A stretch of DNA of 21,401 nucleotides, from assembly GCA_035536995.1 (NCBI GenBank), contig DATLNB010000063.1:1-21401 (forward strand), in the 5' to 3' direction. Position 1 is the first letter of the stretch, and every line of letters starts with the position of its first letter. Positions 9,256 through 21,151 of the stretch are shown here, in pieces. This stretch comes from Chthoniobacterales bacterium. GTDB lineage: Bacteria; Verrucomicrobiota; Verrucomicrobiia; Chthoniobacterales; UBA10450. Both the position numbers and the translations under genes were made by a program. The notes under the pieces were generated by a model, which saw nothing but the letters and a program-made list of their open reading frames with translations, did no database searches and had not been told where the DNA came from.

Positions 9256-9320
9256 GACTCATGCATTCGCCAGTTGCGGGCTGCCTTTCGCTGCCGCGCT
9301 GAAATTCGTCCCCGAATTCG

Positions 9321-9396
9321 AGCGGCGACAATAGCCCAGCGCTTTAGCGCTGGGAATACAATCCGTTCGCGCATGGAGTCCCGCATGGACGAAAGA
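9321..9396 (+). repeat. REP-like element copy 1 (palindrome CCCAGCGCTTTAGCGCTGGG at 9335-9354)
   Basis: The sequence reads gcggcgacaatagCCCAGCGCtttaGCGCTGGGaatacaatccgttcgcgcatggagtcccgcatggacgaaaga. Its spacer matches the reverse complement of the right-hand copy more closely than copy 2 does. Confidence 0.8.
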
Positions 9397-9418
9397 CCGG
9401 TGATTGTCACCAAAGCGA

Positions 9419-9511
9419 CGCCCGACATAAAGCCCCGCTCCGACAATTGCCCAGCGCTTTAGCGCTGGGAATCGGCCACACGAGACGGTAAAGTCCCGGA
9501 GGGACGAAAGA
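9419..9511 (+). repeat. REP-like element copy 2 (palindrome at 9450-9469), abutting the RAYT start codon
   Basis: The sequence reads cgcccgacataaagccccgctccgacaattgCCCAGCGCtttaGCGCTGGGaatcggccacacgagacggtaaagtcccggagggacgaaaga, followed directly by ATG 9512. Confidence 0.8.
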
Positions 9512-9958
9512 ATGCATTCGTTTTCCAGTTCCCTCCATCATTGTGTCTTTGCGACAAAACAGCGCGAAGGACTTCTGGTTCCAGCCATTAGCGACCGGCT
9601 CTGGCCGTACCTCGGAGGAATTGCGCGCGATAACAAAATGAAAGGTCTCGCGATCGGTGGCGTGGCTGATCACGTTCATATCCTGCTCAGTCTGCCGGCT
9701 ACAATGTCGATGGCAAAGGCGATGCAGCTGCTGAAGGGCAATTCTTCGAAATGGATTCATGAGACGTTTCCGAAGCTGCGCAGCTTTGCGTGGCAGGAAG
9801 GATACGGCGCCTTTAGTATTGGCGTGTCTGGAATCGAAGAGACGCGGGAATACATTCACCGCCAGGCAGAGCACCATCGGACGAAAACGTTTCGCGAAGA
9901 GGTAATCATGTTTCTTGAGCGTCATGCTATGACCTTTGATGAAGGGATGTTGGAGTAA
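9512..9958 (+). CDS. REP-associated tyrosine transposase (RAYT; IS200/IS605-family Y1 HUH transposase)
   Basis: 148 aa. The HUH motif is HVHILLSLP. The conserved tail is WQEGYGAFSIG...REYIHRQAEHHRTKTFREE, which carries the catalytic Tyr in the YIxxQxxHH context. Palindromic repeats flank the gene. Confidence 0.85.
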   Translation: MHSFSSSLHHCVFATKQREGLLVPAISDRLWPYLGGIARDNKMKGLAIGGVADHVHILLSLPATMSMAKAMQLLKGNSSKWIHETFPKLRSFAWQEGYGAFSIGVSGIEETREYIHRQAEHHRTKTFREEVIMFLERHAMTFDEGMLE

Positions 9959-9965
9959 TCACGAC

Positions 9966-10045
9966 TCTTTCGTCCCTCCGGGACTCCCCGTGCGCAACGG
10001 ATTGCAATCCCAGCGCTAAAGCGCTGGGCTATTGTCGGAGCGGGG
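9966..10045 (-). repeat. REP-like element copy 3, inverted orientation (palindrome CCCAGCGCTAAAGCGCTGGG at 10009-10028)
   Basis: The reverse complement reads ccccgctccgacaatagCCCAGCGCtttaGCGCTGGGattgcaatccgttgcgcacggggagtcccggagggacgaaaga. It is collinear with both left-hand copies. Confidence 0.8.
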
Positions 10046-10121
10046 GGCTACTGTCGGACCGAGAGGGCACTATCGTCGGAGCGAGCCGTTATTGACGAAG
10101 GGCGGCGTTATTCTCAGGGCC
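10029..10121. repeat. Degenerate tandem array (~5 units, ~19-21 bp period) of the REP flank motif CTAyyGTCGGAsCG
   Basis: The units are ctattgtcggagcg (10030-10043), ctactgtcggaccg (10049-10062) and ctatcgtcggagcg (10070-10083). Two decayed units follow: ttattgacgaaggg (10089-10102) and ttattctcagggc (from 10109). Confidence 0.6.
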
Positions 10122-10171
10122 GCGGTTTGGTGAGCACGGCAATCAGGCGCTCGGTCCGTTTTTATCAGCTC

Positions 10172-10199
10172 TTATTGATTCGTTCGCGCCGGCTATATA
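10172..10199 (+). promoter_or_regulatory. Candidate sigma70-like promoter (-35 TTATTG, 16-nt spacer, -10 TATATA) for the downstream plus-strand gene array
   Basis: It lies in an AT-rich patch about 60 nt upstream of ATG 10258. This rests on hexamer resemblance only, and the promoter consensus in this lineage is unknown to me. Confidence 0.3.
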
Positions 10200-10257
10200 C
10201 CCTCCGAATTCTGTCGCAGTAGCGCTTTTGCAATCGCTGCCGGCTGGCCAGGCGCCC

Positions 10258-10773
10258 ATGGACCTTAATTCACTTGCCCAAATAGCCCAGGTATTGAGCG
10301 GTATTGCGGTCGTCGTGGCGATCGTGTTCGGGCTTGTCCAGGCGCGCCAGTTCAAACAGCAACGGCGCGATGCGGCGGACGTAGAGCTGATGCGCTCAAT
10401 GCAGGATCGGGAATTTACTCGCTCGTTTCGGCTCATTTATTCGATCCAGGACAATTTGAGCGCATCGGGTTTGCGGGCTCTTGGTCCGGAGTACGAGGAG
10501 GCGGCCATCGCCCTCGGGGCGCGATTCGAGTCGATGGGGATGTTGGTCTTTCGCGGTAGTATTCCGCTCGACCTCGTCGAGAAAATCGTCGGTGGTGTGA
10601 TCGTGGTGTTGTGGCGAAAGTTAAAGCTGTTTGTAATCGAATATCGGGCGGAGCAGAAACACGAGCTCCTTTTCGAATGGTTTCAGTGGCTGGCCGAGCG
10701 TATCGAGGAGCGCGGTCGAACAGCGGAGGCTCCGGCCTACAAGCAACACTCGAAATGGACGCCGAAGCGATAA
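10258..10773 (+). CDS. Hypothetical single-pass membrane protein (possibly DUF4760-like)
   Basis: Track ORF 10228..10773 starts at a TTG. ATG 10258 gives MDLNSLAQIAQVLSGIAVVVAIVFGLVQARQFKQQRR, an N-terminal TM helix followed by a positive patch and then a soluble helical domain. The DUF assignment is from memory and weak. Confidence 0.6.
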   Translation: MDLNSLAQIAQVLSGIAVVVAIVFGLVQARQFKQQRRDAADVELMRSMQDREFTRSFRLIYSIQDNLSASGLRALGPEYEEAAIALGARFESMGMLVFRGSIPLDLVEKIVGGVIVVLWRKLKLFVIEYRAEQKHELLFEWFQWLAERIEERGRTAEAPAYKQHSKWTPKR

Positions 10774-10787
10774 CCTAACGAGAGGCT

Positions 10788-11627
10788 GTGGCGAACGACC
10801 CTGGCATCCTGGGAGAAGAAGCTCAGCGCCATTACCGCGATGGGATCGAGCTGTCGCGCCTGCAACGCGGCAGCGGGTCCCTGGAGTTTGCCAGGACCAG
10901 GGAGCTATTAACCCGCCATTTGCCTCAGCCGCCCGCTGTTGTTCTCGACATCGGCGGTGGACCTGGAGCGTACGCCTGCTGGCTCGCGGAGCTCGGCTAC
11001 ACTGTTCATCTGATCGATCCGGTCCCGCTCCATGTTGAGCAGGCGTCCGAGGCGTCGCGGCAACTGGCCCGCCCGGTGGCGAGCGTGGCAGTTGGCGACG
11101 CTAGAGACCTCCCCTACGGAGACAGCAGCGCTGACGCGGTCCTGCTCCTCGGTCCTCTTTATCATCTGGTTGAGCGAGACGATCGCCTCAAGGCCCTCCG
11201 GGAAGCATTTCGTGTCCTGCGTCCGAATGGACAAGTCTTTGCGGTTGGGATTTCGAGGTTTGCTTCGACGCTGGACGGCCTGAAGTCAGGTTATGTCGAC
11301 GACCCGGAGTTTGTCCGGATCTACGAACAAGACCTCCTCAACGGACAGCATCGCAATCCGACAAATCATCCCCATTATTTCACGACCGCGTTCTTCCATC
11401 ATCCCGCCGAGCTGAAAGAAGAATTGGTTGCCTCCGGTTTTGCGCACCACGGCACGTTCGGCATCGAAGGGCCGGCCTGGATGCTTCAGGATTTTTCCGA
11501 ACGCTGGGACTCGCCGCGACGGGAAAGGTTGCTGGCCATTGCACGGGCCCTCGAACAGGAGCCGACTTTGCTTGGGGTGAGCGCGCACCTTCTAGCCGTC
11601 GGGGCCAAACGGCCAATCACCTCGTAA
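10788..11627 (+). CDS. Class I SAM-dependent methyltransferase (substrate unknown)
   Basis: Motif I is VVLDIGGGPGAYACWLAELGYTVHLIDP. The acidic loop is GDARDLPY. The post-II/III segment is AVLLLGPLYHL...VLRPNGQVFAV. The start is a GTG, 14 nt after the preceding gene. Confidence 0.8.
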   Translation: MANDPGILGEEAQRHYRDGIELSRLQRGSGSLEFARTRELLTRHLPQPPAVVLDIGGGPGAYACWLAELGYTVHLIDPVPLHVEQASEASRQLARPVASVAVGDARDLPYGDSSADAVLLLGPLYHLVERDDRLKALREAFRVLRPNGQVFAVGISRFASTLDGLKSGYVDDPEFVRIYEQDLLNGQHRNPTNHPHYFTTAFFHHPAELKEELVASGFAHHGTFGIEGPAWMLQDFSERWDSPRRERLLAIARALEQEPTLLGVSAHLLAVGAKRPITS

Positions 11628-11631
11628 GCGG

Positions 11632-12363
11632 ATGCCCGAGTATATCGCCTGGCTCGCGCTTGCGGTTCTGGTTGTCGCATTCCTCTATTCGAGCGTCGGA
11701 CACGCCGGGGCGTCCGGTTACATCGCGGTGATGACCCTGTTTGGTCTCGCGCCCGCTGCCGTCAAACCGGCCGCGCTGGTCCTGAATATTTTCGTCGCAT
11801 CAATTGGGACGTGGCAGTTCTGGCGGGCGGGGCATTTCTCATGGCGCCTGTTCTGGCCCTTCGCAGTCCTGGCAATGCCGATGGCTTTCGTGGGCGGCTA
11901 CACGAATCTCCCCACGAACACTTTCAAGGTGCTGGTTGGAATTGTCCTGCTGGTCTCCGCGGCGCTCTTTATCGTTCGCCCCTCGAATGACACAGTCGCC
12001 CGCGATCCCAATCGTTTACTCGCCATCATTACTGGCGGCGCGCTTGGGTTGCTGGCCGGATTAACCGGCACCGGCGGTGGTATTTTTCTCACCCCGCTTC
12101 TCCTCTTGATGCGCCGGGCGAAAACCAAGGCGGTCGCGGCCGCGTCCGCGCTTTTCATTCTGGTAAATTCCGTCTCCGGTTTATTGGGAAACCTGAGCAG
12201 CACGAAGAACCTTCCTTCGTTCTCGTTTATCCTCCTCGGCGCAGCGGTGGCCGGAGGCGCCGCCGGTTCCTACTTCGGAAGCCAGCGGTTCAATCACATC
12301 GTGATCAAGCGGCTGCTCGCGGTTGTGTTAACGATCGCCGGATTAAAACTGATTTTGGCCTGA
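11632..12363 (+). CDS. TauE/SafE-family (DUF81) anion permease
   Basis: 243 aa with about 7-8 hydrophobic helices. The sequence is Gly-rich and internally duplicated (SSVGHAGASGYIAVM / LTGTGGGIFLTPLLL), which is typical of the TauE/SafE family. It starts 4 nt after the methyltransferase stop. Confidence 0.75.
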   Translation: MPEYIAWLALAVLVVAFLYSSVGHAGASGYIAVMTLFGLAPAAVKPAALVLNIFVASIGTWQFWRAGHFSWRLFWPFAVLAMPMAFVGGYTNLPTNTFKVLVGIVLLVSAALFIVRPSNDTVARDPNRLLAIITGGALGLLAGLTGTGGGIFLTPLLLLMRRAKTKAVAAASALFILVNSVSGLLGNLSSTKNLPSFSFILLGAAVAGGAAGSYFGSQRFNHIVIKRLLAVVLTIAGLKLILA

Positions 12364-12461
12364 CCAGATCCCGGGACGGGACGCAGACCGAAGGGCCAAC
12401 AACCGTCGATGAAAAGGCTTGTTGGGCGCAGGCGGCGTTTCGTATCCAGAGACGCGGCCTT

Positions 12462-13937
12462 ATGCTTCATAAATCGCGTTCTCGAAACTGTTGCGGTTAC
12501 GTCGGAGCGGTTCTGCTCGCGGCCTGGCCAATCCAACCGGCCGCTGCGCAGGCGACTTCGGACTCAGAGCGCCTGGAAAAATTGGAGCGCGCCGTCGAAC
12601 TACTCCAGAAACGGAATGCGGAGCTGGAACGGGAAGTCCAGAGCCTGAAGAATCAGAAGTCTGCGCCATCCACGGTTTCCGTACCGGCCCCTCGACCGCT
12701 CAGAGAAGAGAAACGTTCCCACTTCGTCCCGGACTCGAAATCGTATGTCGAGAGGACGGAACTAAAGGAAGAGAAGAAGCCCCTTTTTGTGATCGCGGGC
12801 GCTTCGGAAATCAAGCTGACGCTCGGTGGTTTGCTCCAGGTCCAATACGAAGGCGGGGATGTTTTCGCTTTTGAAGGCCGATTTGGGTCGGGCGCAATTG
12901 ACGACCGTTTCCGCGTCCGGCGCGCCCGAATCAACGTCACGGGCGACTTCGCCGAGCAATTCGATTTCAAGCTCGAGGGTGAATTTGCACAGAGCGACGT
13001 GGCGCTCACCGTCCGCGACGCGACGGGCCGGACGCTGGCTTCGAATTCCAGCCGGACTGCGTTTGGCGCTCTCGATCTCTTTGCCAACTGGCACCAGTTT
13101 CCCGAATTCCAAGTCAAGGTGGGCCAATACAAAGCGCCGTTCGGGCTGGAGCAGATCAGCGCCGATCCCAAATTGTTCACCGCTGAGCGGAGCCAGGTCA
13201 CGAGCGCTCTTACGCCGGAGCGCCAGGTCGGAATTCAGATTTGGGGCAAACCGTTCACTCACGCTTTTCCGGAGCAAAAGGATCTGCTGACTTATTGGGT
13301 CGGGATGTTCAACGGCAACGGCCGCAACGTTACGATCAACGATAACGACGAATACATGTATGCAGGCCGGATCGAGGTTCAGCCGTGGAAGGGCAAAGTC
13401 GCGGACCAGGATCTGTGGGTAAAAATCGGGGCCAACGCGCTGCAGAGCCGCGATGCGAGTGGGACGCTCCTGTCCCCCGCAGGCACCTTGCGGGTCAATG
13501 CCGACGGATCCCTAAGCAGCTTCACCGCGCCCTCGGCTGCGGAACGTGAAGGCTGGGGCGCTGATGCGGCTTTTCACTGGGGGCCGTTCGATCTAATCGG
13601 CGAATATCTGAGCGAGAACTACGATGGCCGGATCGTCAACGGCGTCCTGCCCACGTTCGACGATTTTGGCGCTGAAGGTTATTATGTCCAGGGGAGCTAT
13701 TTTATTATCCCGAAGAAACTTCAGGTGGTGACCAAGTACGAACATTTCAATCCCGGGCAGATCATCGATGACAATCTCGACTCCCTGACCGGCGGCGTGA
13801 ATTACTACATCCACGGCGACGACGTGAAGCTCATGGCGAATTACATCCATACCTGGTCGAAGTTCCGCGAAGCCCGCCCGGCTCTCGGCGCGTCCGATTT
13901 CGACGAATTTATTCTGCGACTCCAGATCGTTTACTAA
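12462..13937 (+). CDS. OprO/OprP-type (phosphate-selective porin O/P family) outer-membrane porin with an N-terminal coiled-coil
   Basis: It has a signal peptide (MLHKSRSRNCCGYVGAVLLAAWPIQPAAAQA) and a coiled-coil (ERLEKLERAVELLQKRNAELEREVQSLKN). A beta-barrel body follows with the family-typical RFRVRRARINVTGDF...FDFKLEGEF and alternating aromatic strands, ending in ...ILRLQIVY. Confidence 0.75.
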   Translation: MLHKSRSRNCCGYVGAVLLAAWPIQPAAAQATSDSERLEKLERAVELLQKRNAELEREVQSLKNQKSAPSTVSVPAPRPLREEKRSHFVPDSKSYVERTELKEEKKPLFVIAGASEIKLTLGGLLQVQYEGGDVFAFEGRFGSGAIDDRFRVRRARINVTGDFAEQFDFKLEGEFAQSDVALTVRDATGRTLASNSSRTAFGALDLFANWHQFPEFQVKVGQYKAPFGLEQISADPKLFTAERSQVTSALTPERQVGIQIWGKPFTHAFPEQKDLLTYWVGMFNGNGRNVTINDNDEYMYAGRIEVQPWKGKVADQDLWVKIGANALQSRDASGTLLSPAGTLRVNADGSLSSFTAPSAAEREGWGADAAFHWGPFDLIGEYLSENYDGRIVNGVLPTFDDFGAEGYYVQGSYFIIPKKLQVVTKYEHFNPGQIIDDNLDSLTGGVNYYIHGDDVKLMANYIHTWSKFREARPALGASDFDEFILRLQIVY

Positions 13938-13964
13938 CCCCAACCACCCGCTGCCCGGACCGAT

Positions 13965-15119
13965 ATGAACACCATCAACCCAGAGTCAGAAGTCCGGAAA
14001 CGTTACGCCGCCGGCGCCCAGGCACAGGAGGCGAAACTTTGTTGTCCGGTCGATTACAACACCGACCTGCTGAAAATCATTCCGCAGGAAGTGATTGATC
14101 GCGATTACGGTTGCGGCGATCCGAGCAAATATTTGCACGAAGGCGAGACGGTCCTCGACCTGGGAAGCGGGACAGGAAAAATCTGTTTCATCGCCGCCCA
14201 GGTTGTCGGCGCGAGCGGCAAAGTGATTGGGGTCGATATGACCGACGAGATGCTCGAGGTCGCGCGCCGGAACGCGCCAATCGTGGCTGAGCGGATCGGA
14301 TACGCTAACGTGGAATTCCGGAAAGGCCGGATCCAGGACCTGGCCCTGAGTATCGATCTGCTCGACGCCGAGCTGAAACGGCGGCCGATCAACGATGCCG
14401 CGTCATTCCTTGCCGCGGACGACCTTGCCCGGGAACTTCGGGTCAAGAGTCCGCTCATCGCGAACGACTCGGTGGACGTGGTCGTTTCCAACTGCGTCCT
14501 GAATCTCGTGGAGCCGCAGGCTAAACGGCAGCTGTTCGAGGAAATCTTTCGAGTCCTGAAGATCGGGGGACGGGCTGTCATCTCCGATATCGTGAGTGAC
14601 GAAGCGGTTCCCGAACATCTCCAGAACGATCCGGAGTTGTGGAGCGGCTGCATTTCAGGTGCGCTAACCGAAGAAGGTTTCGTCACTGCTTTCACCAACG
14701 CCGGTTTCTACGGCGTCCAGATTTTGAAGCGGGACGAACAGCCTTGGCAGACTGTGGAAGGAATCGAGTTTCGATCCGTTACGATCGAAGCCTTCAAAGG
14801 AAAACAGGGCCCGTGTGTCGAGCGCAACCAGGCCGTCATTTACAAGGGACCGTTCAAGGAAGTACTCGATGACGACAATCACCGGATGGAACGGGGACGG
14901 CGATACGCAGTCTGTGATAAGACTTACAACATCTATCGCAAGGCGCCCTACGCCGGCTCTTTTGAGTTGGTCGATCCGTTAAGACCTGTCCCGGCCGAAG
15001 AGGCTCGGCCTTTTGATTGCTCCCGCACCGCGTTGCGCCATCCGAAAGAAACAAAGGGACTGGACTACGACGTCACCACCGAAGCATCGCAATGCTATGA
15101 CGGCGGGAATTGTTGTTAG
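13965..15119 (+). CDS. arsM: Arsenite S-adenosylmethionine methyltransferase homologue, with an internal insertion and a Cys-rich C-terminal extension
   Basis: It is collinear with known ArsM sequences: VRKRYA, CC (C26/C27), YGCGDP (C50), GETVLDLGSGTG, GVDMTDEMLEVARRN, NVEFRKGRI, SVDVVVSNCVLNL (C177), FRVLKIGGRAVISDIV and LWSGCISGAL (C229). It has an extra ~40-aa insert (residues ~127-167) and a ~110-aa tail ending QCYDGGNCC. Confidence 0.8.
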   Translation: MNTINPESEVRKRYAAGAQAQEAKLCCPVDYNTDLLKIIPQEVIDRDYGCGDPSKYLHEGETVLDLGSGTGKICFIAAQVVGASGKVIGVDMTDEMLEVARRNAPIVAERIGYANVEFRKGRIQDLALSIDLLDAELKRRPINDAASFLAADDLARELRVKSPLIANDSVDVVVSNCVLNLVEPQAKRQLFEEIFRVLKIGGRAVISDIVSDEAVPEHLQNDPELWSGCISGALTEEGFVTAFTNAGFYGVQILKRDEQPWQTVEGIEFRSVTIEAFKGKQGPCVERNQAVIYKGPFKEVLDDDNHRMERGRRYAVCDKTYNIYRKAPYAGSFELVDPLRPVPAEEARPFDCSRTALRHPKETKGLDYDVTTEASQCYDGGNCC

Positions 15120-15844
15120 GCCGGCTCGTTCGCCCCGTAGTACCAGCGGTGGAGAGTGATCGGCGAAACGCCGGCCTTGAAGAAGAGGAGAAAGAGGCCG
15201 TTTTGGATGCTCGTCCGCCACGCCCCCTTGCGTTGATGATGCCGCGCCGACGAGCGAACCGGCGGATCAAGCAGCGCGATTTTCCCGGCCCGGCGCAACC
15301 TTTTTGAAAACTCGACGTCTTCCATCAGTGGGATCGGGGCGAACCCCCTCAGCTGCATAAACACTTCGCGCCGGACGAAGATGGTCTGGTCGCCGAAGAG
15401 AGTTCCACCGTGGTGCCCACGCCAGCGCGCGACCCTCTCCAGCCATCTCAAGCGCGGATGGCGGTCATCGAATTTGCGATGAAAGGCGCCTCCTACTACG
15501 GCGGTGTCCGACAACGCAGTTTCGATGGCCTGCAAATGTAATTCACTGAATTCAGTATCGGCGTGCTGGAAGATGAGGACGTCGCCGGCAGCGAGTGAAG
15601 CGCCGAGGTTCATTTGTTCGCCGCGGTTGGGGCGCGGCACGCAGACGATGCGCACCTTTGTGGAAGCGGGGCCGTTTATGAAGTCGTTGGGACGGCACGG
15701 CGGCCGTCCCTCCACCGGAACGTCCACGACGATGATTTCTACGCGGCCCGAAAGCGTGGAGAGCCTGGGGAGCAGCGTGGAAAGATTCTCGGCGTCGCGC
15801 CACGCCGGAATCACGAAGCTGACAGCCGGGCTTTCCGCGCTCAC
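15116..15844 (-). CDS. Family-2 glycosyltransferase-like protein of the radical-SAM/selenodomain-associated (TIGR04283-like, 'arsenosugar biosynthesis glycosyltransferase') type
   Basis: Signatures are VSFVIPAWRDAENLSTLLPRL..VEIIVVD, LIFQHADTEF, GGAFHRKF and FGDQTIFVRREVFMQLRGFAPIPLMEDVEFSKRLRRAGKIALLDPPVRSSARHHQRKGAWRT. I place the start at GTG 15844, which overlaps the upstream stop (GTGA). The track ORF extends to 15994 inside the upstream gene. Confidence 0.7.
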   Translation of the reverse strand: MSAESPAVSFVIPAWRDAENLSTLLPRLSTLSGRVEIIVVDVPVEGRPPCRPNDFINGPASTKVRIVCVPRPNRGEQMNLGASLAAGDVLIFQHADTEFSELHLQAIETALSDTAVVGGAFHRKFDDRHPRLRWLERVARWRGHHGGTLFGDQTIFVRREVFMQLRGFAPIPLMEDVEFSKRLRRAGKIALLDPPVRSSARHHQRKGAWRTSIQNGLFLLFFKAGVSPITLHRWYYGANEPA

Positions 15845-17274
15845 TCGAGCGGGCTGGCGGGCTGCGGTTGTTTTCTGAGCTCCGGGTCCTGGAGCCGCTC
15901 GCTGTACACGTCGCTCCAGGTTTGCTGATTCATCGCGCACATCGGCACGGCTTCCCACTCTCCGTTGCGTTTTACTGCGCCTTTGAACACGCACGAATCC
16001 AGCCGCGCCCGGATAACCGGATCCGTCGTCGCGCTGGCGACCTTTTCCGAGCCCATGAAGTTATGCATCCCAACACCGAGCGTGTGGACCTTGCCCCGCA
16101 ACAACGACTGAAAAATTTCTCGCGGCGCGTTCCGTGAACGGAGATACCGGATCATCCTGGTAGCGACCCGCGCCAACAGAACAGGGTTCTTGAAGAGCAC
16201 CCCGGCGAGACGATAGGGCGGCGTCCCGGCGTCGTCGTTGACCAGGGAAAGGCCGCCAATCTCGCGGAGGACTTCGCCTAACAGGTCGTCGAACTCCGGA
16301 TCGTCGGGCAGGAGCGGGAAATATTTCCCGGACGGTCGCGCGATCAGGAGGGAGGCCCAGCTGTTGCAATCCGGGTGACCAAAAATGGAGACGTCGCGTC
16401 GGAGCGGGAGGCCCACGCCTTCGCAGATCTTTTCCCAGACGTCCGCCGAGGTAATCGGGTTTTGCGAAAAAAGGGTCCGGCCGGTGTCCGCTTCCGGTTG
16501 GAAGCTGAGCATGCGCCAGATATAACTGCGTTGCGGATCGGCCAAATACCAGCGGATCACTTCCGGGACGTCGGCGAGATTACGGCGCGTCACCGTGAAG
16601 CTGAGGGCGTATTCGAGGATGAACCCCGTCTTCGCTCGAATTCCGAGCGCCAGGTCGGTAAAAGCTTGTCGGACGGGATGCAGGTCCGCTTCGCATTTGA
16701 TCCGGCCGATCGGATATCCGTGCCGGCCGGCCTGCGTCATGTCCACGTGGACCGAGATCTGGCGAAGCCCCCCTTCCACCACGAGGCGTTCCAAAAATTC
16801 CGGATGCTCGATCAGGGTCTGGCCATGCGTCATTAGCATCGGGATCGAACCAACCGAGTACGCATAACGGACGATCTCGATGAGCTCATCGGCGCGGCCC
16901 GATCTCCAATAGGCGTCGGCAACATCCCCACCCGTGATTTGAAGCCCACCCCCCGGACCTTGGAACCGCCGGTTCGCATCGATCTGTTCCCGGACCTGCG
17001 CCAGCGAAGGGATCGGAATCGAGTTGGCGTTTTTCGGGAGGTAACAATGGGTGCAGTGAAACGAGCAATAGCTTGCGCCGAGAGTGAAGCCGCAGTGGGT
17101 CAGGTGGCGCCCGGAGATCTGGTTGTTGGTTTGAAGCTCTGGCGGGAGCGAGTCCCACCGCTCCCTGAGCACCCGGGCCTTTTCCTCTACAATCGGCTGC
17201 CGAAAGGCCTGCCAGCGCTGCCGCCACCGGGACGGCCGCGACGTTTCGGTTTGAGGATGCGCGAGCGAGACCAT
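15841..17274 (-). CDS. Radical SAM enzyme, uncharacterised 477-aa family
   Basis: CSFHCTHC (CX3CX2C; residues 70-77, nt 17044-17067) is followed by a GGE-like motif, LQITGGDV. I recognise no B12-binding domain and no SPASM/twitch Cys cluster. It starts 4 nt after the DUF547 stop and overlaps the GT start by 4 nt. Confidence 0.75.
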   Translation of the reverse strand: MVSLAHPQTETSRPSRWRQRWQAFRQPIVEEKARVLRERWDSLPPELQTNNQISGRHLTHCGFTLGASYCSFHCTHCYLPKNANSIPIPSLAQVREQIDANRRFQGPGGGLQITGGDVADAYWRSGRADELIEIVRYAYSVGSIPMLMTHGQTLIEHPEFLERLVVEGGLRQISVHVDMTQAGRHGYPIGRIKCEADLHPVRQAFTDLALGIRAKTGFILEYALSFTVTRRNLADVPEVIRWYLADPQRSYIWRMLSFQPEADTGRTLFSQNPITSADVWEKICEGVGLPLRRDVSIFGHPDCNSWASLLIARPSGKYFPLLPDDPEFDDLLGEVLREIGGLSLVNDDAGTPPYRLAGVLFKNPVLLARVATRMIRYLRSRNAPREIFQSLLRGKVHTLGVGMHNFMGSEKVASATTDPVIRARLDSCVFKGAVKRNGEWEAVPMCAMNQQTWSDVYSERLQDPELRKQPQPASPLE

Positions 17275-17278
17275 TTCT

Positions 17279-18016
17279 CTATTTAACTTCGTTCAACGCC
17301 CAATCGTAATTTTGGTAACTGATTTTCACGTCAGCGGGAAGCGGCTTCGAACGCCGCTTGTTGATGAACGCCACCGGCCCACCGTCTTTGAAGTCATCCT
17401 TGTACCAATCAAAAATCTTGGAAAGCTCGGCCGTCTTCGCCCCCTCCTGCCAGGCCACGCCTCTGGGGCTGTTCACGAAGCTGCGGGAAAGGCGCTCCAG
17501 TTGTGAATCGAGGTTCCCGCCCCGATAAGCTTCCGAGCTGAGAGGGGGGCAGCTCTGGCTCGCGCAATTAAGGGCAAAATGAATCCGAGGTTCGGAGAAC
17601 TTCGAACGGATCGTTTCCTTCTCGAGCGCGTTGAAGCTCGTCTGTTCGCCCGCCACCTTGATTCGTTTGCTGGTGAAGAAAGTAAAGAGCGCGTCCTTCA
17701 CGCTTTTGGTCGGATATTTTTCGAGCGCTTCGTGCAGGATCCACGCGTTGTAAGCGTTGATGTAGAAGGCAAGCTGGTCGTTCCGGCTCATCGCACCCAC
17801 GTTCGCCGAACCGATTCCATCCACGACCGTCTGCAAATCTTTCATGTCCCCTGCGTTACTTTTCCACGCCGCGTATTTTACTCCCCCGTTGCTGACATAT
17901 TTTTTCAGGAGCCGATCGTAGGTATCGGTCCAATTATCAGCCGCGTCGATTCGGCTGGCTGCGATCGTCAGGCCGACTAAAACAAGGAGGAACAATGAGC
18001 CGGATCGAGTGCGCAT
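17279..18016 (-). CDS. Secreted DUF547-family protein
   Basis: DUF547 signatures are LAFYINAYNAWILHEALEKYPTKSVKD and EPRIHFALNCASQSCPPL, with IFDWYKDDF near the C-terminus. The start is placed at ATG 18016 (MRTRSGSLFLLVLVGLTIAASRIDAADNW, a signal peptide). The track ORF extends to 18115 with an Arg-rich leader. Confidence 0.75.
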   Translation of the reverse strand: MRTRSGSLFLLVLVGLTIAASRIDAADNWTDTYDRLLKKYVSNGGVKYAAWKSNAGDMKDLQTVVDGIGSANVGAMSRNDQLAFYINAYNAWILHEALEKYPTKSVKDALFTFFTSKRIKVAGEQTSFNALEKETIRSKFSEPRIHFALNCASQSCPPLSSEAYRGGNLDSQLERLSRSFVNSPRGVAWQEGAKTAELSKIFDWYKDDFKDGGPVAFINKRRSKPLPADVKISYQNYDWALNEVK

Positions 18017-18981
18017 GCTTCCAGTTCGCACCCGTTGCCTCCGTCGGGCAAGCCAAAAGCGTATTCTCCCCCCACCGTCTATTCCTTTGCATCGCCGTTC
18101 TTTGGTTTGTGGCAAACACCGCGAACGCCACGACCGTCTGGATCGATACCGATGTTTCCATCGGATCCCCGTTTCGGGAGGTGGACGACGCGTTTGCGCT
18201 GCTCCTCGCCTTTCGCTGTCCGGAGCTCCAAATCGCCGGGGTGAGCACGAGTTACGGGAACGCCCCCCTCCGAATGACGACCGCGTCGGCGCGGAAGCTT
18301 TTCGCGCAGCTCAATCCCGAGACGCCGGTGTTTCCCGGGGCAGCCTCACGGAATGACGTGGCGACCAGAACGGAAGCATCGGAAGCGCTCGCTGCTGCAT
18401 TACGCAGAAAAGGCGCTCTCACCTACGTAGCTCTCGGTCCGCTTACGAATTTGGCTGCGTTTCAAACGCTTCATCCCGCGCTCTCCCGCAAAATCGACCG
18501 AGTCATATTCCTTGGAGGGACAACTCCTGCGACAACCCTTCGTTTCGGATCGCGCCATCCGATTCGCATTCACGACGCGAACGTGGTGAAAGATCCGGAG
18601 GCGGTTGAGCGGATCCTTTGTCGGGGAAAACCGTTCACACTTATCCCGGTCGAAACCGCGGCGAAATTGACGCGGAACGCGGCAGAGCTCGATTCCTTGC
18701 GACGCGACCCAGCTGGCGATTTCGTTCAGGCCCACAGCCGCGTCTGGCTCTGGTTTTGGACAAAATTTGTGGGAACGAGCGGAGCCCCAATCTTCGATGC
18801 AGCGGCGATTCTGGCTGCGGCCGATCCGGCTTCGATGAAGATGGCAAAGCGTTTCGCGGAAATAAACGCAGTCGGAGAGCTTGTCGTGTCGAACGACCCC
18901 CGTGGGCACTCGGTTTCGCTTGCGGTTGAAGTCCGCCAGCGCGGTTATGCCTTGCTCGAGAGAAGGCTTGGCGCTCGCTGA
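17995..18981 (+). CDS. Nucleoside hydrolase (inosine/uridine-preferring IUNH fold) with a probable N-terminal signal/anchor
   Basis: The N-terminal Asp cluster WIDTDVSIGSPFREVDDAFALLLAF..PELQIAGVSTSYGNAPL is a DxDxxxDD motif with a 6-residue insert. The later APIFDAAAILAAADP corresponds to the metal-binding Asp region. A hydrophobic segment, LFLCIAVLWFVANTANA, precedes the domain. ATG 17995 is the only canonical start upstream of that segment. Confidence 0.7.
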   Translation: MSRIECACFQFAPVASVGQAKSVFSPHRLFLCIAVLWFVANTANATTVWIDTDVSIGSPFREVDDAFALLLAFRCPELQIAGVSTSYGNAPLRMTTASARKLFAQLNPETPVFPGAASRNDVATRTEASEALAAALRRKGALTYVALGPLTNLAAFQTLHPALSRKIDRVIFLGGTTPATTLRFGSRHPIRIHDANVVKDPEAVERILCRGKPFTLIPVETAAKLTRNAAELDSLRRDPAGDFVQAHSRVWLWFWTKFVGTSGAPIFDAAAILAAADPASMKMAKRFAEINAVGELVVSNDPRGHSVSLAVEVRQRGYALLERRLGAR

Positions 18982-19052: not shown

Positions 19053-20174
19053 ATGGCCATCCTTGTCGCTCTGTTCGTCGCGACCTGTTTCCTCGCCTAC
19101 TCCAACGGGGCGAACGATAACTTCAAAGGCGTTGCCTCGCTTTATGGGTGCCGGGCGGCCAATTATCGCACAGCGATTAGTTGGGCCACAATCACCACGT
19201 TTGCCGGCTCCATCGCGTCCATTTTTCTCGCGCAAGCCTTGTTGAAAAGGTTTTCCGGCAAAGGCCTCGTGCCGGATAGCTTTGTCGGCACTGAAACGTT
19301 TCTGCTCAGTGTTGCCATGGGCGCAGCCATCATTGTTATCCTGGCGACGTGGCTAGGATTTCCCATTTCAACAACACACGCGCTGACCGGCGCAATCGTG
19401 GGGTGCGGCCTCGTGTCAGTCGGAACGGGAGTGAACTTCGGGGCCCTGGGCAAAGGCTTTGTCCTGCCTCTCTTGCTCAGTCCGTTGGTCGCCATCCTTC
19501 TCGGCGCGTTGATCTATTTTATCCTCCGCGGCTTCCGGCTGATTTGCGGCGTTAAGAAAGAATTGTGTATTTGCCTCGGCGCGGAAGAACGCGTTGTTGC
19601 TCTGCCGCAGCCGCATTCCATTCTGGCCTTCCAAACCTCGCGCGCCATTACTTTGACCGTTGATCAGGAGGAGAGCTGCCAGGAACGTTATGCCGGATCG
19701 ATGCTTGGCCTGACCGCGCAACAAATCATGGATGGCGCCCATTTTCTGAGTGCGGGAGTAGTGAGTTTCGCGCGCGGCCTCAACGACACGCCGAAGATCG
19801 TCGCCATGCTCCTTCTCCTGAAAGCGATGGACATTCGCTGGGGATTTTTCGCGGTCGCAGTCACGATGGCGGTTGGCGGGTTATTGAACGCGCGCCGGGT
19901 CGCTGAGACAATGAGCCACAAAATCACCGCCATAAATCACGGGCAGGGACTCTCGGCGAATCTGACGACCGGTCTCCTCGTCATCATGGCAAGTGTGTTC
20001 GGGCTCCCGGTCTCGACCACCCAGGTCTCGGTTGGCGCGCTCTTCGGAATGGGCGTGATCACCGGGCAAGCCAACCTGCGGGTGATGGCCAACATTGTCC
20101 TCTCGTGGCTCATTACATTACCGTGTGCCGCGATTATTAGCGGTGCCGCCTACGCCCTCCTGAAAAACCTGTGA
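19053..20174 (+). CDS. PiT (PHO4) family inorganic anion (phosphate/arsenate-type) transporter
   Basis: 373 aa and polytopic. It has the duplicated PiT signature: N-terminal YSNGANDNFKGVASLYG and C-terminal FARGLNDTPKIVAML. The central loop contains CIC and a third Cys. Confidence 0.8.
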   Translation: MAILVALFVATCFLAYSNGANDNFKGVASLYGCRAANYRTAISWATITTFAGSIASIFLAQALLKRFSGKGLVPDSFVGTETFLLSVAMGAAIIVILATWLGFPISTTHALTGAIVGCGLVSVGTGVNFGALGKGFVLPLLLSPLVAILLGALIYFILRGFRLICGVKKELCICLGAEERVVALPQPHSILAFQTSRAITLTVDQEESCQERYAGSMLGLTAQQIMDGAHFLSAGVVSFARGLNDTPKIVAMLLLLKAMDIRWGFFAVAVTMAVGGLLNARRVAETMSHKITAINHGQGLSANLTTGLLVIMASVFGLPVSTTQVSVGALFGMGVITGQANLRVMANIVLSWLITLPCAAIISGAAYALLKNL

Positions 20175-21151
20175 ACCTGACCGCGACCAACAGTTTCGCC
20201 CGCCGCCTGGCCGAGCACTCGTTGCCGCTCAAGCATGCAAAAACGGAAGTGCTCCAGATAAACGTTGGAAAGCTCTGCAATCTGACGTGCGTTCATTGCC
20301 ACGTGAATGCCGGTCCCAGGCGAAAGGAAATCATAAGCCGGGCGACTATTGACCAGCTGATCGACTGGCTGGCCAAGACTGATATCCCCACGGTCGATCT
20401 CACGGGCGGCGCTCCCGAAATGATTCCGGATTTCAAGTATCTGGTGACTCGACTCAAAGCCTTGACGCCGCCGCGCCATATTATTGACCGGTGCAATCTG
20501 ACGATCCTGCTCGAGCCCGGGTTTGAGGATTACGCAGAGTTTTTGGCCGAGCACCGAATCGAGATCATCGCGTCCATGCCCTGTTATTCGGCGGAGAACG
20601 TGAATGCCCAGCGGGGCGAGGGCGTCTTCGACGCGAGCATCAAGGCGCTTCAGCTTTTGAACTCGTTAGGTTACGGGACCCGGCCGGACCTGCCTCTCCA
20701 TCTTGTTTATAACCCGAACGGGGCTTTCCTCCCCAGCCCGCAGGAAGAGCTGGAAGCGGATTACAAGCGCGAGCTACAGGAACATTTCAAAATCACCTTT
20801 AACAGGCTCTACACGATCACAAACCTCCCGATCGCGCGCTTTGCGTCGTATTTGAAGAACAACAACCTGCTCGGTGATTATATGGCCCTGCTAAACGATG
20901 CCTTTAATCCTGCCACGGTGAACGGGTTGATGTGCCGGAACACGATCAATGTCAGCTGGCAGGGCGAGGTGTTCGATTGCGATTTCAACCAGATGCTGAA
21001 GCTGCCGTGGTCCGGCCCCGGCGAGAGCGGGGCGATGCATTTGTGGGATGTGGATCCAGCGCGGGTCGAGGAGCGCGAGGTCTTGATTGGCGACCATTGC
21101 TTCGGATGCACGGCGGGCGCCGGCTCCAGCTGCGGCGGCGCGCTGGTATAG
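20171..21151 (+). CDS. arsS: ArsS-type radical SAM protein with a Cys-rich C-terminal domain (TIGR04167-like 'arsenosugar biosynthesis radical SAM protein'), Cys form
   Basis: The radical SAM motif is CNLTCVHC (CX3CX2C; nt 20276-20299) in the context LQINVGKLCNLTCVHCHVNAGPRRKE. DLTGGAPE is the GGE motif. The C-terminal segment is CRNTINVSWQGEVFDCDFNQML...IGDHCFGCTAGAGSSCGGAL. The GTG start overlaps the PiT stop (ctGTGAac). Confidence 0.8.
   Translation: MNLTATNSFARRLAEHSLPLKHAKTEVLQINVGKLCNLTCVHCHVNAGPRRKEIISRATIDQLIDWLAKTDIPTVDLTGGAPEMIPDFKYLVTRLKALTPPRHIIDRCNLTILLEPGFEDYAEFLAEHRIEIIASMPCYSAENVNAQRGEGVFDASIKALQLLNSLGYGTRPDLPLHLVYNPNGAFLPSPQEELEADYKRELQEHFKITFNRLYTITNLPIARFASYLKNNNLLGDYMALLNDAFNPATVNGLMCRNTINVSWQGEVFDCDFNQMLKLPWSGPGESGAMHLWDVDPARVEEREVLIGDHCFGCTAGAGSSCGGALV

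Follow-up and report, generated by a model that had tools for sequence, protein, structure and literature searches.

A Tes-like radical SAM enzyme paired with DUF547 in an arsenosugar island of Chthoniobacterales: a possible role in lipid-linked organoarsenical chemistry

Why should an arsenosugar island carry a second radical SAM enzyme in addition to ArsS? To our knowledge, the only established enzymatic steps are methylation by ArsM and 5'-deoxyadenosylation by ArsS, and we know of no route by which arsenic-containing lipids are made. The literature that we searched contains no description of a second radical SAM enzyme, or of DUF547, in arsenosugar clusters. Both are encoded in a stretch of 21,401 nucleotides from a Chthoniobacterales bacterium (contig DATLNB010000063.1, hereafter the window). 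Here we ask what this second enzyme, which we call rSAM2, is related to, which genes accompany it, and what it might do.

The rSAM2 gene and its surroundings

An earlier note on the window had described an open reading frame of 477 codons with a CX3CX2C motif some 70 residues from the N-terminus and a GGD variant of the GGE motif, and had taken its product for a second, uncharacterised radical SAM protein. All of this stands (Table 1). The frame is a genuine conserved gene, far beyond chance: there are 664 homologues, the best of them at E = 0, and 541 clusters at 50% identity. C70, C74 and C77, the predicted ligands of the SAM-cleaving [4Fe-4S] cluster, are invariant in all of our alignments (A1, A2 and A3). 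In the more distant members GGD is replaced by GGE, as seen in the consensus of A2 and A3.

Table 1. Features of the window discussed in the text
Feature	Position	Strand	Basis or remark
Tes-like radical SAM enzyme rSAM2, 477 aa	15841..17274	-	ORF and translation, ATG start
CX3CX2C motif CSFHCTHC, residues 70-77 (C70, C74, C77)	17044..17067	-	read from sequence
GGD, residues 115-117, in ITGGDV	16924..16932	-	variant of the GGE motif, SAM-binding
Predicted C-terminal auxiliary-cluster domain, residues ~290-460	15895..16407	-	conserved Cys and GDGT-MAS alignment
C303 of rSAM2	16366-16368	-	invariant across 39 diverse members
C428 of rSAM2	15991-15993	-	at least 90% conserved, 39 diverse members
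C446 of rSAM2	15937-15939	-	at least 90% conserved, 39 diverse members
C61 of rSAM2, just upstream of CX3CX2C	17092..17094	-	invariant in alignments A1 and A3
TIGR04283-family glycosyltransferase GT-a	15116..15844	-	NCBIfam 186 bits, cutoff 182
DUF547 protein, signal-peptide-like N-terminus, start codon uncertain	17279..18019	-	PF04784, 94.8 bits
ArsM-like arsenite methyltransferase, convergent with the GT	13965..15119	+	NF040538 339 bits, NF008823 210 bits, both below cutoff
Inosine-uridine-type nucleoside hydrolase, signal-peptide-like N-terminus, start uncertain	17995..18981	+	PF01156, 134 bits
PHO4/Pit-family phosphate (arsenate) transporter	19053..20174	+	PF01384, 219 bits; 4-nt overlap with arsS
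ArsS, arsenosugar radical SAM enzyme	20171..21151	+	TIGR04167 436 bits, cutoff 300; DUF3641 185 bits

The neighbours named before (DUF547, a TIGR04283 glycosyltransferase, ArsS and an ArsM-like protein) are borne out by Pfam and NCBIfam scores, and so is the tight spacing. The stop codon of DUF547 (TAG, 17279-17281) is separated by 4 nt from the ATG of rSAM2 at 17274, and the GTG start of GT-a at 15844 overlaps the TGA stop of rSAM2 (15841-15843) as GTGA. With this spacing the three genes may be co-expressed stoichiometrically, as the earlier note proposed. The nucleoside hydrolase gene is divergent from DUF547 and recurs beside rSAM2 homologues in three other loci (L105, L111 and L129). Genes for a phosphate porin and the PHO4 transporter border the island. 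Scans for promoters and terminators, for Rfam families and for composition gave nothing informative.

Although ArsS and rSAM2 share an island and a superfamily, the latter is not a duplicate of the former. We rejected that idea, as BLASTP similarity between the two proteins of the window (22 bits) is confined to the CX3CX2C region. ArsS carries DUF3641, whereas rSAM2 has no DUF3641 and carries the Tes-type domain described below; TIGR04167, with its cutoff of 300 bits, does not match rSAM2. The ArsS family is also much larger than that of rSAM2, its best 120 matches all being at least 84% identical.

Relationship to tetraether lipid synthase

The earlier note could match the protein to no named family and recognised no signature in its C-terminal region. 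As regards membership, the first statement holds. No family cutoff is reached in the NCBIfam scan, and with 27.4 bits for PF04055 (Radical_SAM) the protein also falls short of the Pfam cutoff, 29.5 bits, which relatives pass (P0159 with 42.9 and P0148 with 39.8 bits). Neither Pfam nor NCBIfam finds a SPASM, twitch or cobalamin-binding domain, and in this respect the second statement holds too. SPASM-family models give sub-threshold scores of 15-22 bits, over the core only; with no SPASM or twitch domain found, a maturase of that type was rejected.

As regards relationship, however, there is a clear distant relative: the archaeal tetraether lipid synthase Tes, or GDGT-MAS (MJ0619; structures 7tol and 7tom; family model NF045702). 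The structure prediction and Foldseek search that had been proposed for this protein point to it. The AlphaFold (AF2) model of rSAM2 has a pLDDT of 92.7, and its outstanding match is GDGT-MAS (7tom/7tol) with E 2e-15 over about 450 columns (453 aligned) and a TM score of 0.56. The runner-up is DesII with E 1.8e-05, so that ten orders of magnitude separate GDGT-MAS from the next structural neighbour; the second tier consists of the sugar-acting enzymes DesII and BlsE (E ~1e-5). The top 22 matches, each with E<=1e-3, are all radical SAM enzymes, in keeping with the partial TIM barrel of this superfamily.

Profile searches, proposed likewise, led to the same enzyme without any subfamily cutoff being reached. 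A profile built from alignment A2, which holds 39 diverse sequences of the rSAM2 family, was compared with the PDB by hmmsearch and found 7tol with E 2.6e-27 and 98.9 bits (query 54-440, chain 110-503); SkfB came next with E 2e-06. Only this diverse profile revealed the relationship: searches of the PDB with the single sequence or with shallow profiles gave nothing, or 7tol at E 0.08 only. Distant relatives of rSAM2 match NF045702 with 34-67 bits (best E 9e-19), against a cutoff of 450, while rSAM2 of the window does not match it at E<=0.01.

Behind the radical SAM core, both proteins have a C-terminal domain for an auxiliary [4Fe-4S] cluster, which in rSAM2 is predicted. The profile alignment places the CX3CX2C motif of rSAM2 on the RS motif of GDGT-MAS, and the columns of C303, C428 and C446 on cysteines of its C-terminal domain (HQHC / RCC / PFC); the FQP..GR and H.FMD motifs align as well. 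Hence the C-terminal region, in which the earlier note recognised no signature, is not devoid of one, since these three cysteines match the auxiliary-cluster domain of GDGT-MAS.

The differences are equally marked. Identity is only ~17-18%. The rubredoxin domain of Tes (C9, C12, C33, H36) is absent from rSAM2, which has no cysteine in residues 1-60, and so is the N-terminal [Fe4S4] domain (C73, C77, C80 and a His). rSAM2 thus lacks two of the four metal sites that Tes has; the alignment with 7tol starts at chain residue 110, and upstream of its radical SAM motif rSAM2 has a single conserved cysteine, C61. This fourth conserved cysteine outside the motif is possibly the fourth ligand of the auxiliary cluster. 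In GDGT-MAS, Met439 is a labile ligand of the C-terminal cluster, and the M439A variant is still active (PMC9433317). Its counterpart in rSAM2, M403, lies in a column that is not conserved (M/V/I/T among close homologues). Finally, rSAM2 is bacterial (Verrucomicrobiota and metagenome lineages), paired with DUF547 and found in arsenosugar operons instead of among archaeal lipid genes. We regard rSAM2 as a new Tes-like subfamily on its sequence, because it is without the two N-terminal metal domains of Tes and fails the Tes family model.

A lipid tunnel, an intermediate with a bond between carbon and a cluster sulfur, and the domains and ligands compared above have been described for GDGT-MAS (PMC9433317). 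By analogy, rSAM2 and Tes are probably of the same mechanistic class, with hydrogen abstraction at an unactivated carbon and participation of the auxiliary cluster. According to a 2026 review, the bacterial membrane-spanning lipid synthase Mss and the archaeal GMGT synthase Gms are further Tes-like enzymes, for which the same radical coupling by an auxiliary cluster on lipid tails is postulated; Mss is an example of such chemistry on the fatty acyl chains of bacteria (PMC13459092). Compared by description only, they differ from rSAM2 in that no association with DUF547 or arsenic genes is reported for either. Among named families, TrsS (NF045646) ranks second for distant rSAM2 members, which match it over the radical SAM core with E 1e-13 to 1e-16, all scores being far under the cutoff of 490. 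TrsS is listed only as a radical SAM selenoprotein and is itself uncharacterised (PMC13188914).

Partners of rSAM2 in other genomes

Which genes stay with rSAM2? A profile search of genome contigs gave close loci (the best 80 of 512, all Chthoniobacterales-like), and distant loci came from a search of representative sequences and from a metagenome scan with the distant alignment. Neighbours were counted in a six-frame phmmer census of the 50 close and 19 distant loci with flanks of at least 4 kb. DUF547 adjoins rSAM2 in all 50 of the close and 15 of the 19 distant loci. ArsS, ArsM, TIGR04283 or TIGR04282 is found within 10 kb in 14 of the 50 and 9 of the 19; in the remaining 36 and 10, no arsenic gene lies within that distance. 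Since most homologues are without one, the conserved unit is rSAM with DUF547 rather than rSAM with ArsS, and the module may work independently of arsenic. As the ArsS family is, besides, much larger, rSAM2 would be an accessory to arsenosugar synthesis and not a core step.

Nevertheless, the link that the earlier note drew to ArsM, ArsS, TIGR04283 and DUF547 is not a one-off. When the neighbourhoods were tabulated, as it had proposed, homologues did co-occur with these genes, DUF547 in essentially all loci, and a search for orthology to an established enzyme of unrelated function turned up none. Arsenosugar markers are found repeatedly next to family members that share only ~33% identity with rSAM2 of the window, and an ArsM orthologue accompanies rSAM2 in 14 of the 80 close loci. 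ArsM, ArsS, TIGR04282, TIGR04283, a MerA-like flavoprotein and a DedA/VTT protein are all found embedded with, or fused to, rSAM2 and DUF547. In Chthoniobacter-type genomes a single operon reads GT-rSAM-ArsM-ArsS-GT-oxidoreductase-DedA-DUF547, and such eight-gene arsenosugar operons including rSAM2 are present in five loci (L071, L072, L075, L078 and L080). Within Chthoniobacterales, the basal clades of rSAM2 are all arsenic-linked; one large derived clade has GT4-DUF547-rSAM only, beside housekeeping genes.

The glycosyltransferase seems to belong to rSAM2 in particular. Fusions of a TIGR04283-like domain with rSAM occur in three proteins (P0085, P0109 and P0112), whose glycosyltransferase domains are 46-53% identical to GT-a. 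Identity is 47-48% with the glycosyltransferase directly upstream of rSAM2 in L072 and L078 and only 36-39% with the second TIGR04283 paralogue of the same operons. Judged by these identities, GT-a is a dedicated paralogue that tracks rSAM2. In P0144 a domain like a polyprenyl-phosphate glycosyltransferase is fused to rSAM, and the adjoining genes resemble those for alkyl-DHAP synthase and fatty-acyl reductase. An Lgt-like transferase is found in 18 of 89 loci, and a CDP-alcohol phosphatidyltransferase and DedA/VTT proteins are further lipid-type neighbours. For the upstream GT4 of the derived clade we weighed a role as glycolipid synthase and rejected it: its best matches are the EPS enzymes EpsE and WcaL, so its adjacency to rSAM is probable synteny.

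What of DUF547 itself? Its signal-peptide-like N-terminus makes the partner protein look exported, and H147, C152 and C157 are invariant in it (H-x4-C-x4-C). In P0167 it is fused to rSAM2 with a hydrophobic segment between the two domains, which suggests that they lie on opposite sides of the membrane. DUF547 and a cytoplasmic rSAM2 thus appear to be separated by the membrane, and this complicates a direct partnership. Some loci have two tandem DUF547 paralogues with one rSAM. A model made from a shallower alignment (pLDDT 88) found no neighbour in the PDB with E below 1, and hence no functional clue. With at least 7261 clusters, the DUF547 family is far larger than that of rSAM2, and it extends to eukaryotes (Pfam description, plant papers).

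What might rSAM2 do?

The DUF547 pairing, the repeated arsenosugar operons and the relationship to Tes together make rSAM2 a candidate for the arsenic-lipid-making step. In the reading that we prefer, and to which we give an even chance, it is a two-cluster, Tes-related radical SAM enzyme, a lipid-type C-H functionaliser recruited for a lipid-linked organoarsenical; analogy and gene context suggest the substrate and the reaction. As in GDGT-MAS, a hydrophobic chain would lie between the radical SAM barrel and the C-terminal domain, and the 5'-deoxyadenosyl radical would remove hydrogen from one of its unactivated sp3 carbons. Once the substrate radical has been captured or relayed by the auxiliary cluster, a new bond would form at that carbon. 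The gene context would make a lipid-linked organoarsenical the substrate or product of the island. The dimethylarsenic and 5'-deoxyribosyl moiety would come from ArsM and ArsS and be linked to a lipid acceptor by the coupled TIGR04283 paralogue. Modification or coupling of the hydrocarbon part would fall to rSAM2, and DUF547 would have its role on the periplasmic side. ArsS and rSAM2 would presumably both be needed for one product. The earlier idea of arsenolipid-like products gains weight because rSAM2 is homologous to a tetraether lipid synthase; the specific chemistry then suggested, a further As-C bond or action on the sugar, is taken up below among the less likely readings.

Much of this can be read in other ways. 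If rSAM2 and DUF547 serve general membrane-lipid remodelling, for example Mss-like coupling or cross-linking of chains, no arsenic chemistry would be involved, and the vicinity of ArsM and ArsS would reflect synteny or shared regulation, such as by phosphate limitation. The many loci without arsenic genes within 10 kb, the large GT4-DUF547-rSAM clade, the phosphate porin and PHO4 genes at the borders of the island and the lipid-enzyme neighbours in distant loci agree with this. Yet a specific TIGR04283 paralogue is fused to rSAM2 and tracks it, several genomes place rSAM2 between a GT and ArsM-ArsS in one operon, and the markers beside ~33%-identical members in 9 of 19 loci are far above chance adjacency, ArsS being a single gene among all those of a genome. 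The GT4, moreover, looks EPS-type (EpsE-like), and its adjacency may be mere synteny. We consider general remodelling unlikely. Alternatively, rSAM2 could be a dedicated maturase of DUF547, modifying a residue such as C152 or C157 before export, in which case the pathway enzyme proper would be DUF547. A parallel is offered by the anaerobic sulfatase-maturing enzymes, whose targets are exported sulfatases. Near-obligate adjacency with spacing of the translational-coupling type (the 4-nt gap in the window), tandem DUF547 paralogues served by one rSAM, the signal-peptide-like N-terminus and the invariant H-x4-C-x4-C would all fit, and a fold with no solved relative leaves room as to its activity. 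Against this, the closest relative of rSAM2, far ahead of all others, works on lipids and is not a maturase of peptides or proteins, and SPASM is absent. The DUF547 family is far larger and also eukaryotic, there presumably without rSAM2; DUF547 is absent from 4 of the 19 well-flanked distant loci; the hydrophobic segment of P0167 suggests domains on opposite membrane sides; and the glycosyltransferase fusions would be left unexplained. This, too, strikes us as unlikely.

Could the substrate be a small arsenical instead? rSAM2 would then form a further As-C bond directly, like ArsS or ArsL, or tailor 5-deoxy-5-dimethylarsinoyl-ribose, as its place within ArsM/ArsS operons and the sugar-acting DesII and BlsE among its structural neighbours (in the second tier, with E only ~1e-5) might suggest. 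However, similarity to ArsS stops at the cluster motif, with no DUF3641, while kinship to a lipid-coupling enzyme extends over the whole length, auxiliary-cluster domain included, and the lipid-type neighbours and glycosyltransferase fusions point to a lipid-linked substrate. We find this decidedly improbable. Lastly, four homologues (P0048, P0056, P0088 and P0100) carry the JGI label '7,8-dihydro-6-hydroxymethylpterin dimethyltransferase', which would make rSAM2 a methylase of the methanopterin pathway. We know of no reason to expect methanopterin biosynthesis in Verrucomicrobiota. The label stems from MJ0619, which proved to be GDGT-MAS rather than a pterin methylase (PMC9433317), and with that reassignment this explanation is effectively refuted.

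Returning to the lipid-linked organoarsenical, a bolder and rather unlikely version of our preferred reading can be put forward: rSAM2 may be the missing arsenolipid synthase itself. In the manner of Tes, it would activate a carbon, terminal or otherwise unactivated, in a fatty or isoprenoid chain and join it to an arsenic-bearing moiety, which could be an As-methyl carbon, As(III) of dimethylarsenite, or an arsenosugar attached by the dedicated glycosyltransferase. If this is true, hydrocarbons or fatty acids that contain arsenic, or arsenosugar lipids, would be products of soil Verrucomicrobiota, and the pathway would include DUF547 as a new thiol enzyme of the periplasm.

Independently of arsenic, rSAM2 defines a compact bacterial version of the Tes architecture with two predicted clusters, and the misleading annotation of its homologues as pterin dimethyltransferases can be corrected. 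Bacterial DUF547 gains its first functional context. For arsenic-containing lipids, there is now a clonable set of candidates, namely DUF547, the dedicated TIGR04283 paralogue and a Tes-like radical SAM enzyme whose nearest characterised relative carries out radical coupling on lipid tails.

rSAM2 in its gene cluster

rSAM2, the second radical SAM enzyme of the window, is the product of a real gene. What the earlier note had read around it (the ORF, the CSFHCTHC motif, a GGD SAM-binding motif, a 4-nt gap to DUF547 and a GTGA overlap) agrees with the sequence: GGD lies at residues 115-117, the TAG stop of DUF547 (17279-17281) is followed after 4 nt by the rSAM2 ATG, and the glycosyltransferase lying 3' of rSAM2 starts with a GTG (15844) that overlaps the rSAM2 TGA stop. 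Profile searches bear out its neighbour identities as well. DUF547 matches PF04784 (94.8 bits), the glycosyltransferase matches TIGR04283 (186 bits, cutoff 182), the gene of an ArsM-like methyltransferase is convergent with the latter, and the strand opposite to rSAM2 carries a divergent trio of nucleoside hydrolase, PHO4 transporter and the arsenosugar radical SAM enzyme ArsS (TIGR04167, 436 bits). The cluster motif is the only part that this ArsS and rSAM2 have in common.

Features of the window and of loci carrying rSAM2 homologues (L-numbers)
Feature	Position	Strand	Remarks
IS200/IS605-family transposase TnpA	9512-9958	+	NF033573, 69.6 bits (cutoff 55)
DUF4760 protein, class I SAM methyltransferase, TauE/SafE-family exporter	10228-12363	+	between transposase and porin
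Phosphate-selective porin	12462-13937		far side of arsM from PHO4/arsS
ArsM-like protein, 384 aa	13965-15119	+	Cys-rich C-terminal tail, ...CYDGGNCC
rSAM2 ORF, 477 aa, ATG start	15841-17274	-	read from sequence
CSFHCTHC (CX3CX2C), residues 70-77	17044-17067	-	read from sequence
DUF547	17279-18019	-	signal-peptide-like N-terminus, MRTRSGSLFLLVLVGLTIAASRIDAAD
Inosine-uridine-type nucleoside hydrolase	17995-18981	+	signal-peptide-like N-terminus
PHO4/Pit-family transporter and arsS	19053-21151	+	4-nt overlap at arsS start, 20171-20174
Co-directional array, Chthoniobacter-type	L071, L072, L075, L078, L080, ~9150-17400 each		GT-a, rSAM2, ArsM, ArsS, GT-b, MerA-like FAD oxidoreductase (NF004991), DedA/VTT protein, DUF547
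Second rSAM2-similar ORF	L056 5995-7509	-	Chthoniobacterales locus
Arsenosugar-marked distant locus	L124		ArsS-DedA-oxidoreductase-DUF547-DUF547-rSAM
Arsenosugar-marked distant locus	L133		rSAM-ArsS-DedA-oxidoreductase-ArsM-DUF547
Arsenosugar-marked distant locus	L099		rSAM-ArsS
Short Lgt-family paralogue, ~233 aa	L141 2708-3409; L161 5178-5885; L126 11479-12216		also in 15 other distant loci

The PHO4/Pit gene overlaps arsS and a porin lies beyond arsM, so that genes for the uptake of phosphate/arsenate are coupled in this island with those that make organoarsenicals. By its scores the ArsM-like protein fits neither curated ArsM subtype, since the better match, to the arsinothricin-type model NF040538, reaches 339 bits (cutoff 500) and that to the 'arsenosugar ArsM' exception model NF038099 is poor (138 bits, cutoff 400). 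The longest ORFs of the nucleoside hydrolase and DUF547 overlap head-to-head, which leaves the real start of each in doubt. If the hydrolase serves to remove adenine from 5'-deoxy-5'-dimethylarsinoyl-adenosine in the cytoplasm, a periplasmic location would be unexpected.

Upstream, the class I SAM methyltransferase is weakly similar to MftM and DVU_1556-type methyltransferases. Because another locus, L034, likewise has a TauE orthologue near ArsM (82% identity), the DUF4760, methyltransferase and TauE genes may belong to the island. TnpA, which has pdxJ-like housekeeping genes on one side and the beginning of the DUF4760/methyltransferase/TauE/porin/ArsM block on the other, may mark the island edge; GC composition across it shows no anomaly.

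A compact relative of the tetraether lipid synthase

Taken alone, rSAM2 scores 27.4 bits against Pfam Radical_SAM, below the cutoff of 29.5, and as a single sequence it reaches no NCBIfam family and no PDB entry. Its distant members (25-42% identity) match NF045702, the model of the archaeal tetraether lipid synthase GDGT-MAS (Tes, MJ0619), with up to 67 bits; they also match the model of TrsS, an uncharacterised family, and in both cases it is the radical SAM core that aligns. A profile of 39 diverse members retrieves GDGT-MAS (7tol) from the PDB at E 2.6e-27, with SkfB as runner-up at 2e-06; the match (query 54-440, chain 110-503) takes in the radical SAM core together with all of the C-terminal domain. 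The AlphaFold2 model (mean pLDDT 92.7, pTM 0.92) agrees: its best Foldseek match is GDGT-MAS (E 2e-15, about 450 columns, TM 0.56), and the next radical SAM enzyme is DesII at 1.8e-05.

Apart from the cluster motif, the family alignments contain an invariant C303, C428 and C446 conserved at 90% or more, and C61, which does not vary in two alignments out of three. When the profile is aligned with GDGT-MAS, C303, C428 and C446 coincide with cysteines in the C-terminal domain of that enzyme (HQHC, RCC, PFC), and FQP..GR and H.FMD motifs are common to both proteins. The earlier view that no cluster signature can be recognised in the C-terminal part thus needs correction: besides the radical SAM cluster site, the protein has a Tes-type auxiliary-cluster domain.

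Besides the radical SAM cluster, GDGT-MAS carries a rubredoxin-type iron site (C9, C12, C33, H36), an N-terminal [Fe4S4] cluster (C73, C77, C80, His) and a C-terminal [Fe4S4] cluster, of which Met439 is a labile ligand; in the course of C(sp3)-C(sp3) coupling, a sulfide of this last cluster becomes bonded to the lipid carbon (PMC9433317). Residues 1-60 of rSAM2 contain no cysteine, and it therefore lacks the first two of these sites. Met439 corresponds to M403, a column that varies between M, V, I and T among close homologues. rSAM2 thus lies outside the Tes family as defined; it is a compact relative, probably with two clusters. We hold this Tes-like two-cluster assignment with considerable confidence.

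Partners among close and distant relatives

Our searches gave 664 homologues, of which the top 120 (69-100% identity) all come from Chthoniobacterales/Verrucomicrobiota metagenome-assembled genomes; at 50% identity the family falls into 541 clusters, of which 125 have E<=1e-30. Since the ArsS family is far larger (at least 7995 clusters at E<=1e-50), rSAM2 is accessory to arsenosugar synthesis and not a core step.

Among the best 80 of 512 GTDB loci (70-91% identity; tblastn and six-frame phmmer censuses), DUF547 adjoins rSAM2 in 78, and in all 50 whose flanks extend 4 kb or more in each direction. In 14 of these 50, a TIGR04283-like glycosyltransferase, ArsM, ArsS or TIGR04282 lies within 10 kb. 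A neighbour-joining tree places arsenic linkage in the basal clades, including the window's own group and a Chthoniobacter-type group of about 70% identity, five loci of which share one co-directional array with TIGR04282 a few kb away. Its two glycosyltransferases, GT-a (187 bits) and GT-b (208 bits), both exceed the TIGR04283 cutoff. In one large derived clade the genes run GT4-DUF547-rSAM, beside OpcA/G6PD genes; this GT4 resembles EPS enzymes, so its adjacency is probably synteny. L056 has a second rSAM2-similar ORF about 2.5 kb upstream of its DUF547-rSAM2-GT cluster; it matches no NCBIfam model and may be a paralogue.

The distant set comprises 89 loci at about 33% identity: exact look-ups gave nine, and a metagenome scan that started from a distant alignment gave 80. 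DUF547, in some cases as two tandem paralogues, adjoins rSAM in 63 of them (15 of 19 with adequate flanks), and arsenosugar markers occur in nine of these 19. The oxidoreductase and DedA pair of the Chthoniobacter-type arrays recurs with ArsS in L124 and L133. The pairing with DUF547 is thus conserved, and the coupling to arsenosugar genes, physical and genetic, is repeated.

Fusions occur with both partners. In the homologue P0167, rSAM and DUF547 domains are separated by a hydrophobic segment, TVLKALMFVALSMLPGCFSLVV; in P0085, P0109 and P0112 a TIGR04283-type domain (152-175 bits) precedes the radical SAM domain, as does a polyprenyl-phosphate-GT-like domain in P0144. The window glycosyltransferase and the fused TIGR04283-type domains are 46-72% identical among themselves and only 35-41% to GT-b; all are GT-a, and by this comparison rSAM2 has its own glycosyltransferase paralogue.

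DUF547 proteins in other loci bear signal peptides or lipobox-like sequences. H147, C152 and C157 are invariant within HFALNCASxxCP, and the model (pLDDT 88, mostly helical) places this H-x4-C-x4-C motif in a loop. No PDB structure is its neighbour at E below 1, and fold and site look like ones without solved precedent. The literature searched gives DUF547 neither an arsenic connection nor a biochemical function.

Possible roles of rSAM2

Membrane-lipid enzymes are further recurrent neighbours of distant loci. An Lgt-like transferase directly adjoins DUF547-DUF547-rSAM2 in 18 of the 89; this short paralogue scores 87 bits against TIGR00544 (cutoff 119) and is a diacylglyceryl-transferase-like membrane enzyme. 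A CDP-alcohol phosphatidyltransferase also recurs, and P0144 is flanked by alkyl-DHAP synthase-like and fatty-acyl reductase-like genes. If rSAM2 works by analogy with GDGT-MAS, it would remove hydrogen from a hydrophobic chain at an unactivated carbon, where a new bond would then be made with the use of its auxiliary cluster. The genomic context suggests a lipid-linked organoarsenical as the output: ArsM and ArsS would supply the arsenic moiety, GT-a would join it to a lipid acceptor, and the hydrocarbon part would be the target of rSAM2. A DedA-type protein, where present (the window has none), might then bring the intermediate into the periplasm; the next steps there would fall to the nucleoside hydrolase and the DUF547 protein. 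To this reading as a whole, Tes-like chemistry on a lipid chain on the way to such a product, we give about an even chance. The two-cluster assignment is much more secure than the whole, and firmer within it than the lipid substrate, a tentative proposal that falls slightly short of even.

Other roles can be suggested. With lipid enzymes beside distant loci and arsenosugar markers in part of the well-flanked ones, the genes could form a general lipid-remodelling module whose arsenic link is regulatory or syntenic only, which we regard as unlikely. That rSAM2 is a maturase of DUF547, its constant neighbour and in P0167 its fusion partner, is likewise rather unlikely. The earlier note had thought of a small-molecule As-C bond or of sugar tailoring; beside the Tes-type domain, these ideas seem improbable. 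The label '7,8-dihydro-6-hydroxymethylpterin dimethyltransferase', which JGI gives to some homologues, goes back to an old annotation of MJ0619, that is, of GDGT-MAS itself (PMC9433317), and is almost certainly wrong.

No second radical SAM enzyme, Tes homologue or DUF547 is described in arsenosugar clusters in the literature searched, and a review from 2026 on radical SAM enzymes that modify lipids covers Tes, Mss and Gms, with arsenic absent (PMC13459092). New in rSAM2, as an enzyme of Tes-like type, are the smaller set of cofactors, the near-obligate partner DUF547 and the pathway context. With a three-gene cassette of DUF547, rSAM2 and GT-a, the old question of how arsenolipids are made comes within reach of experiment.
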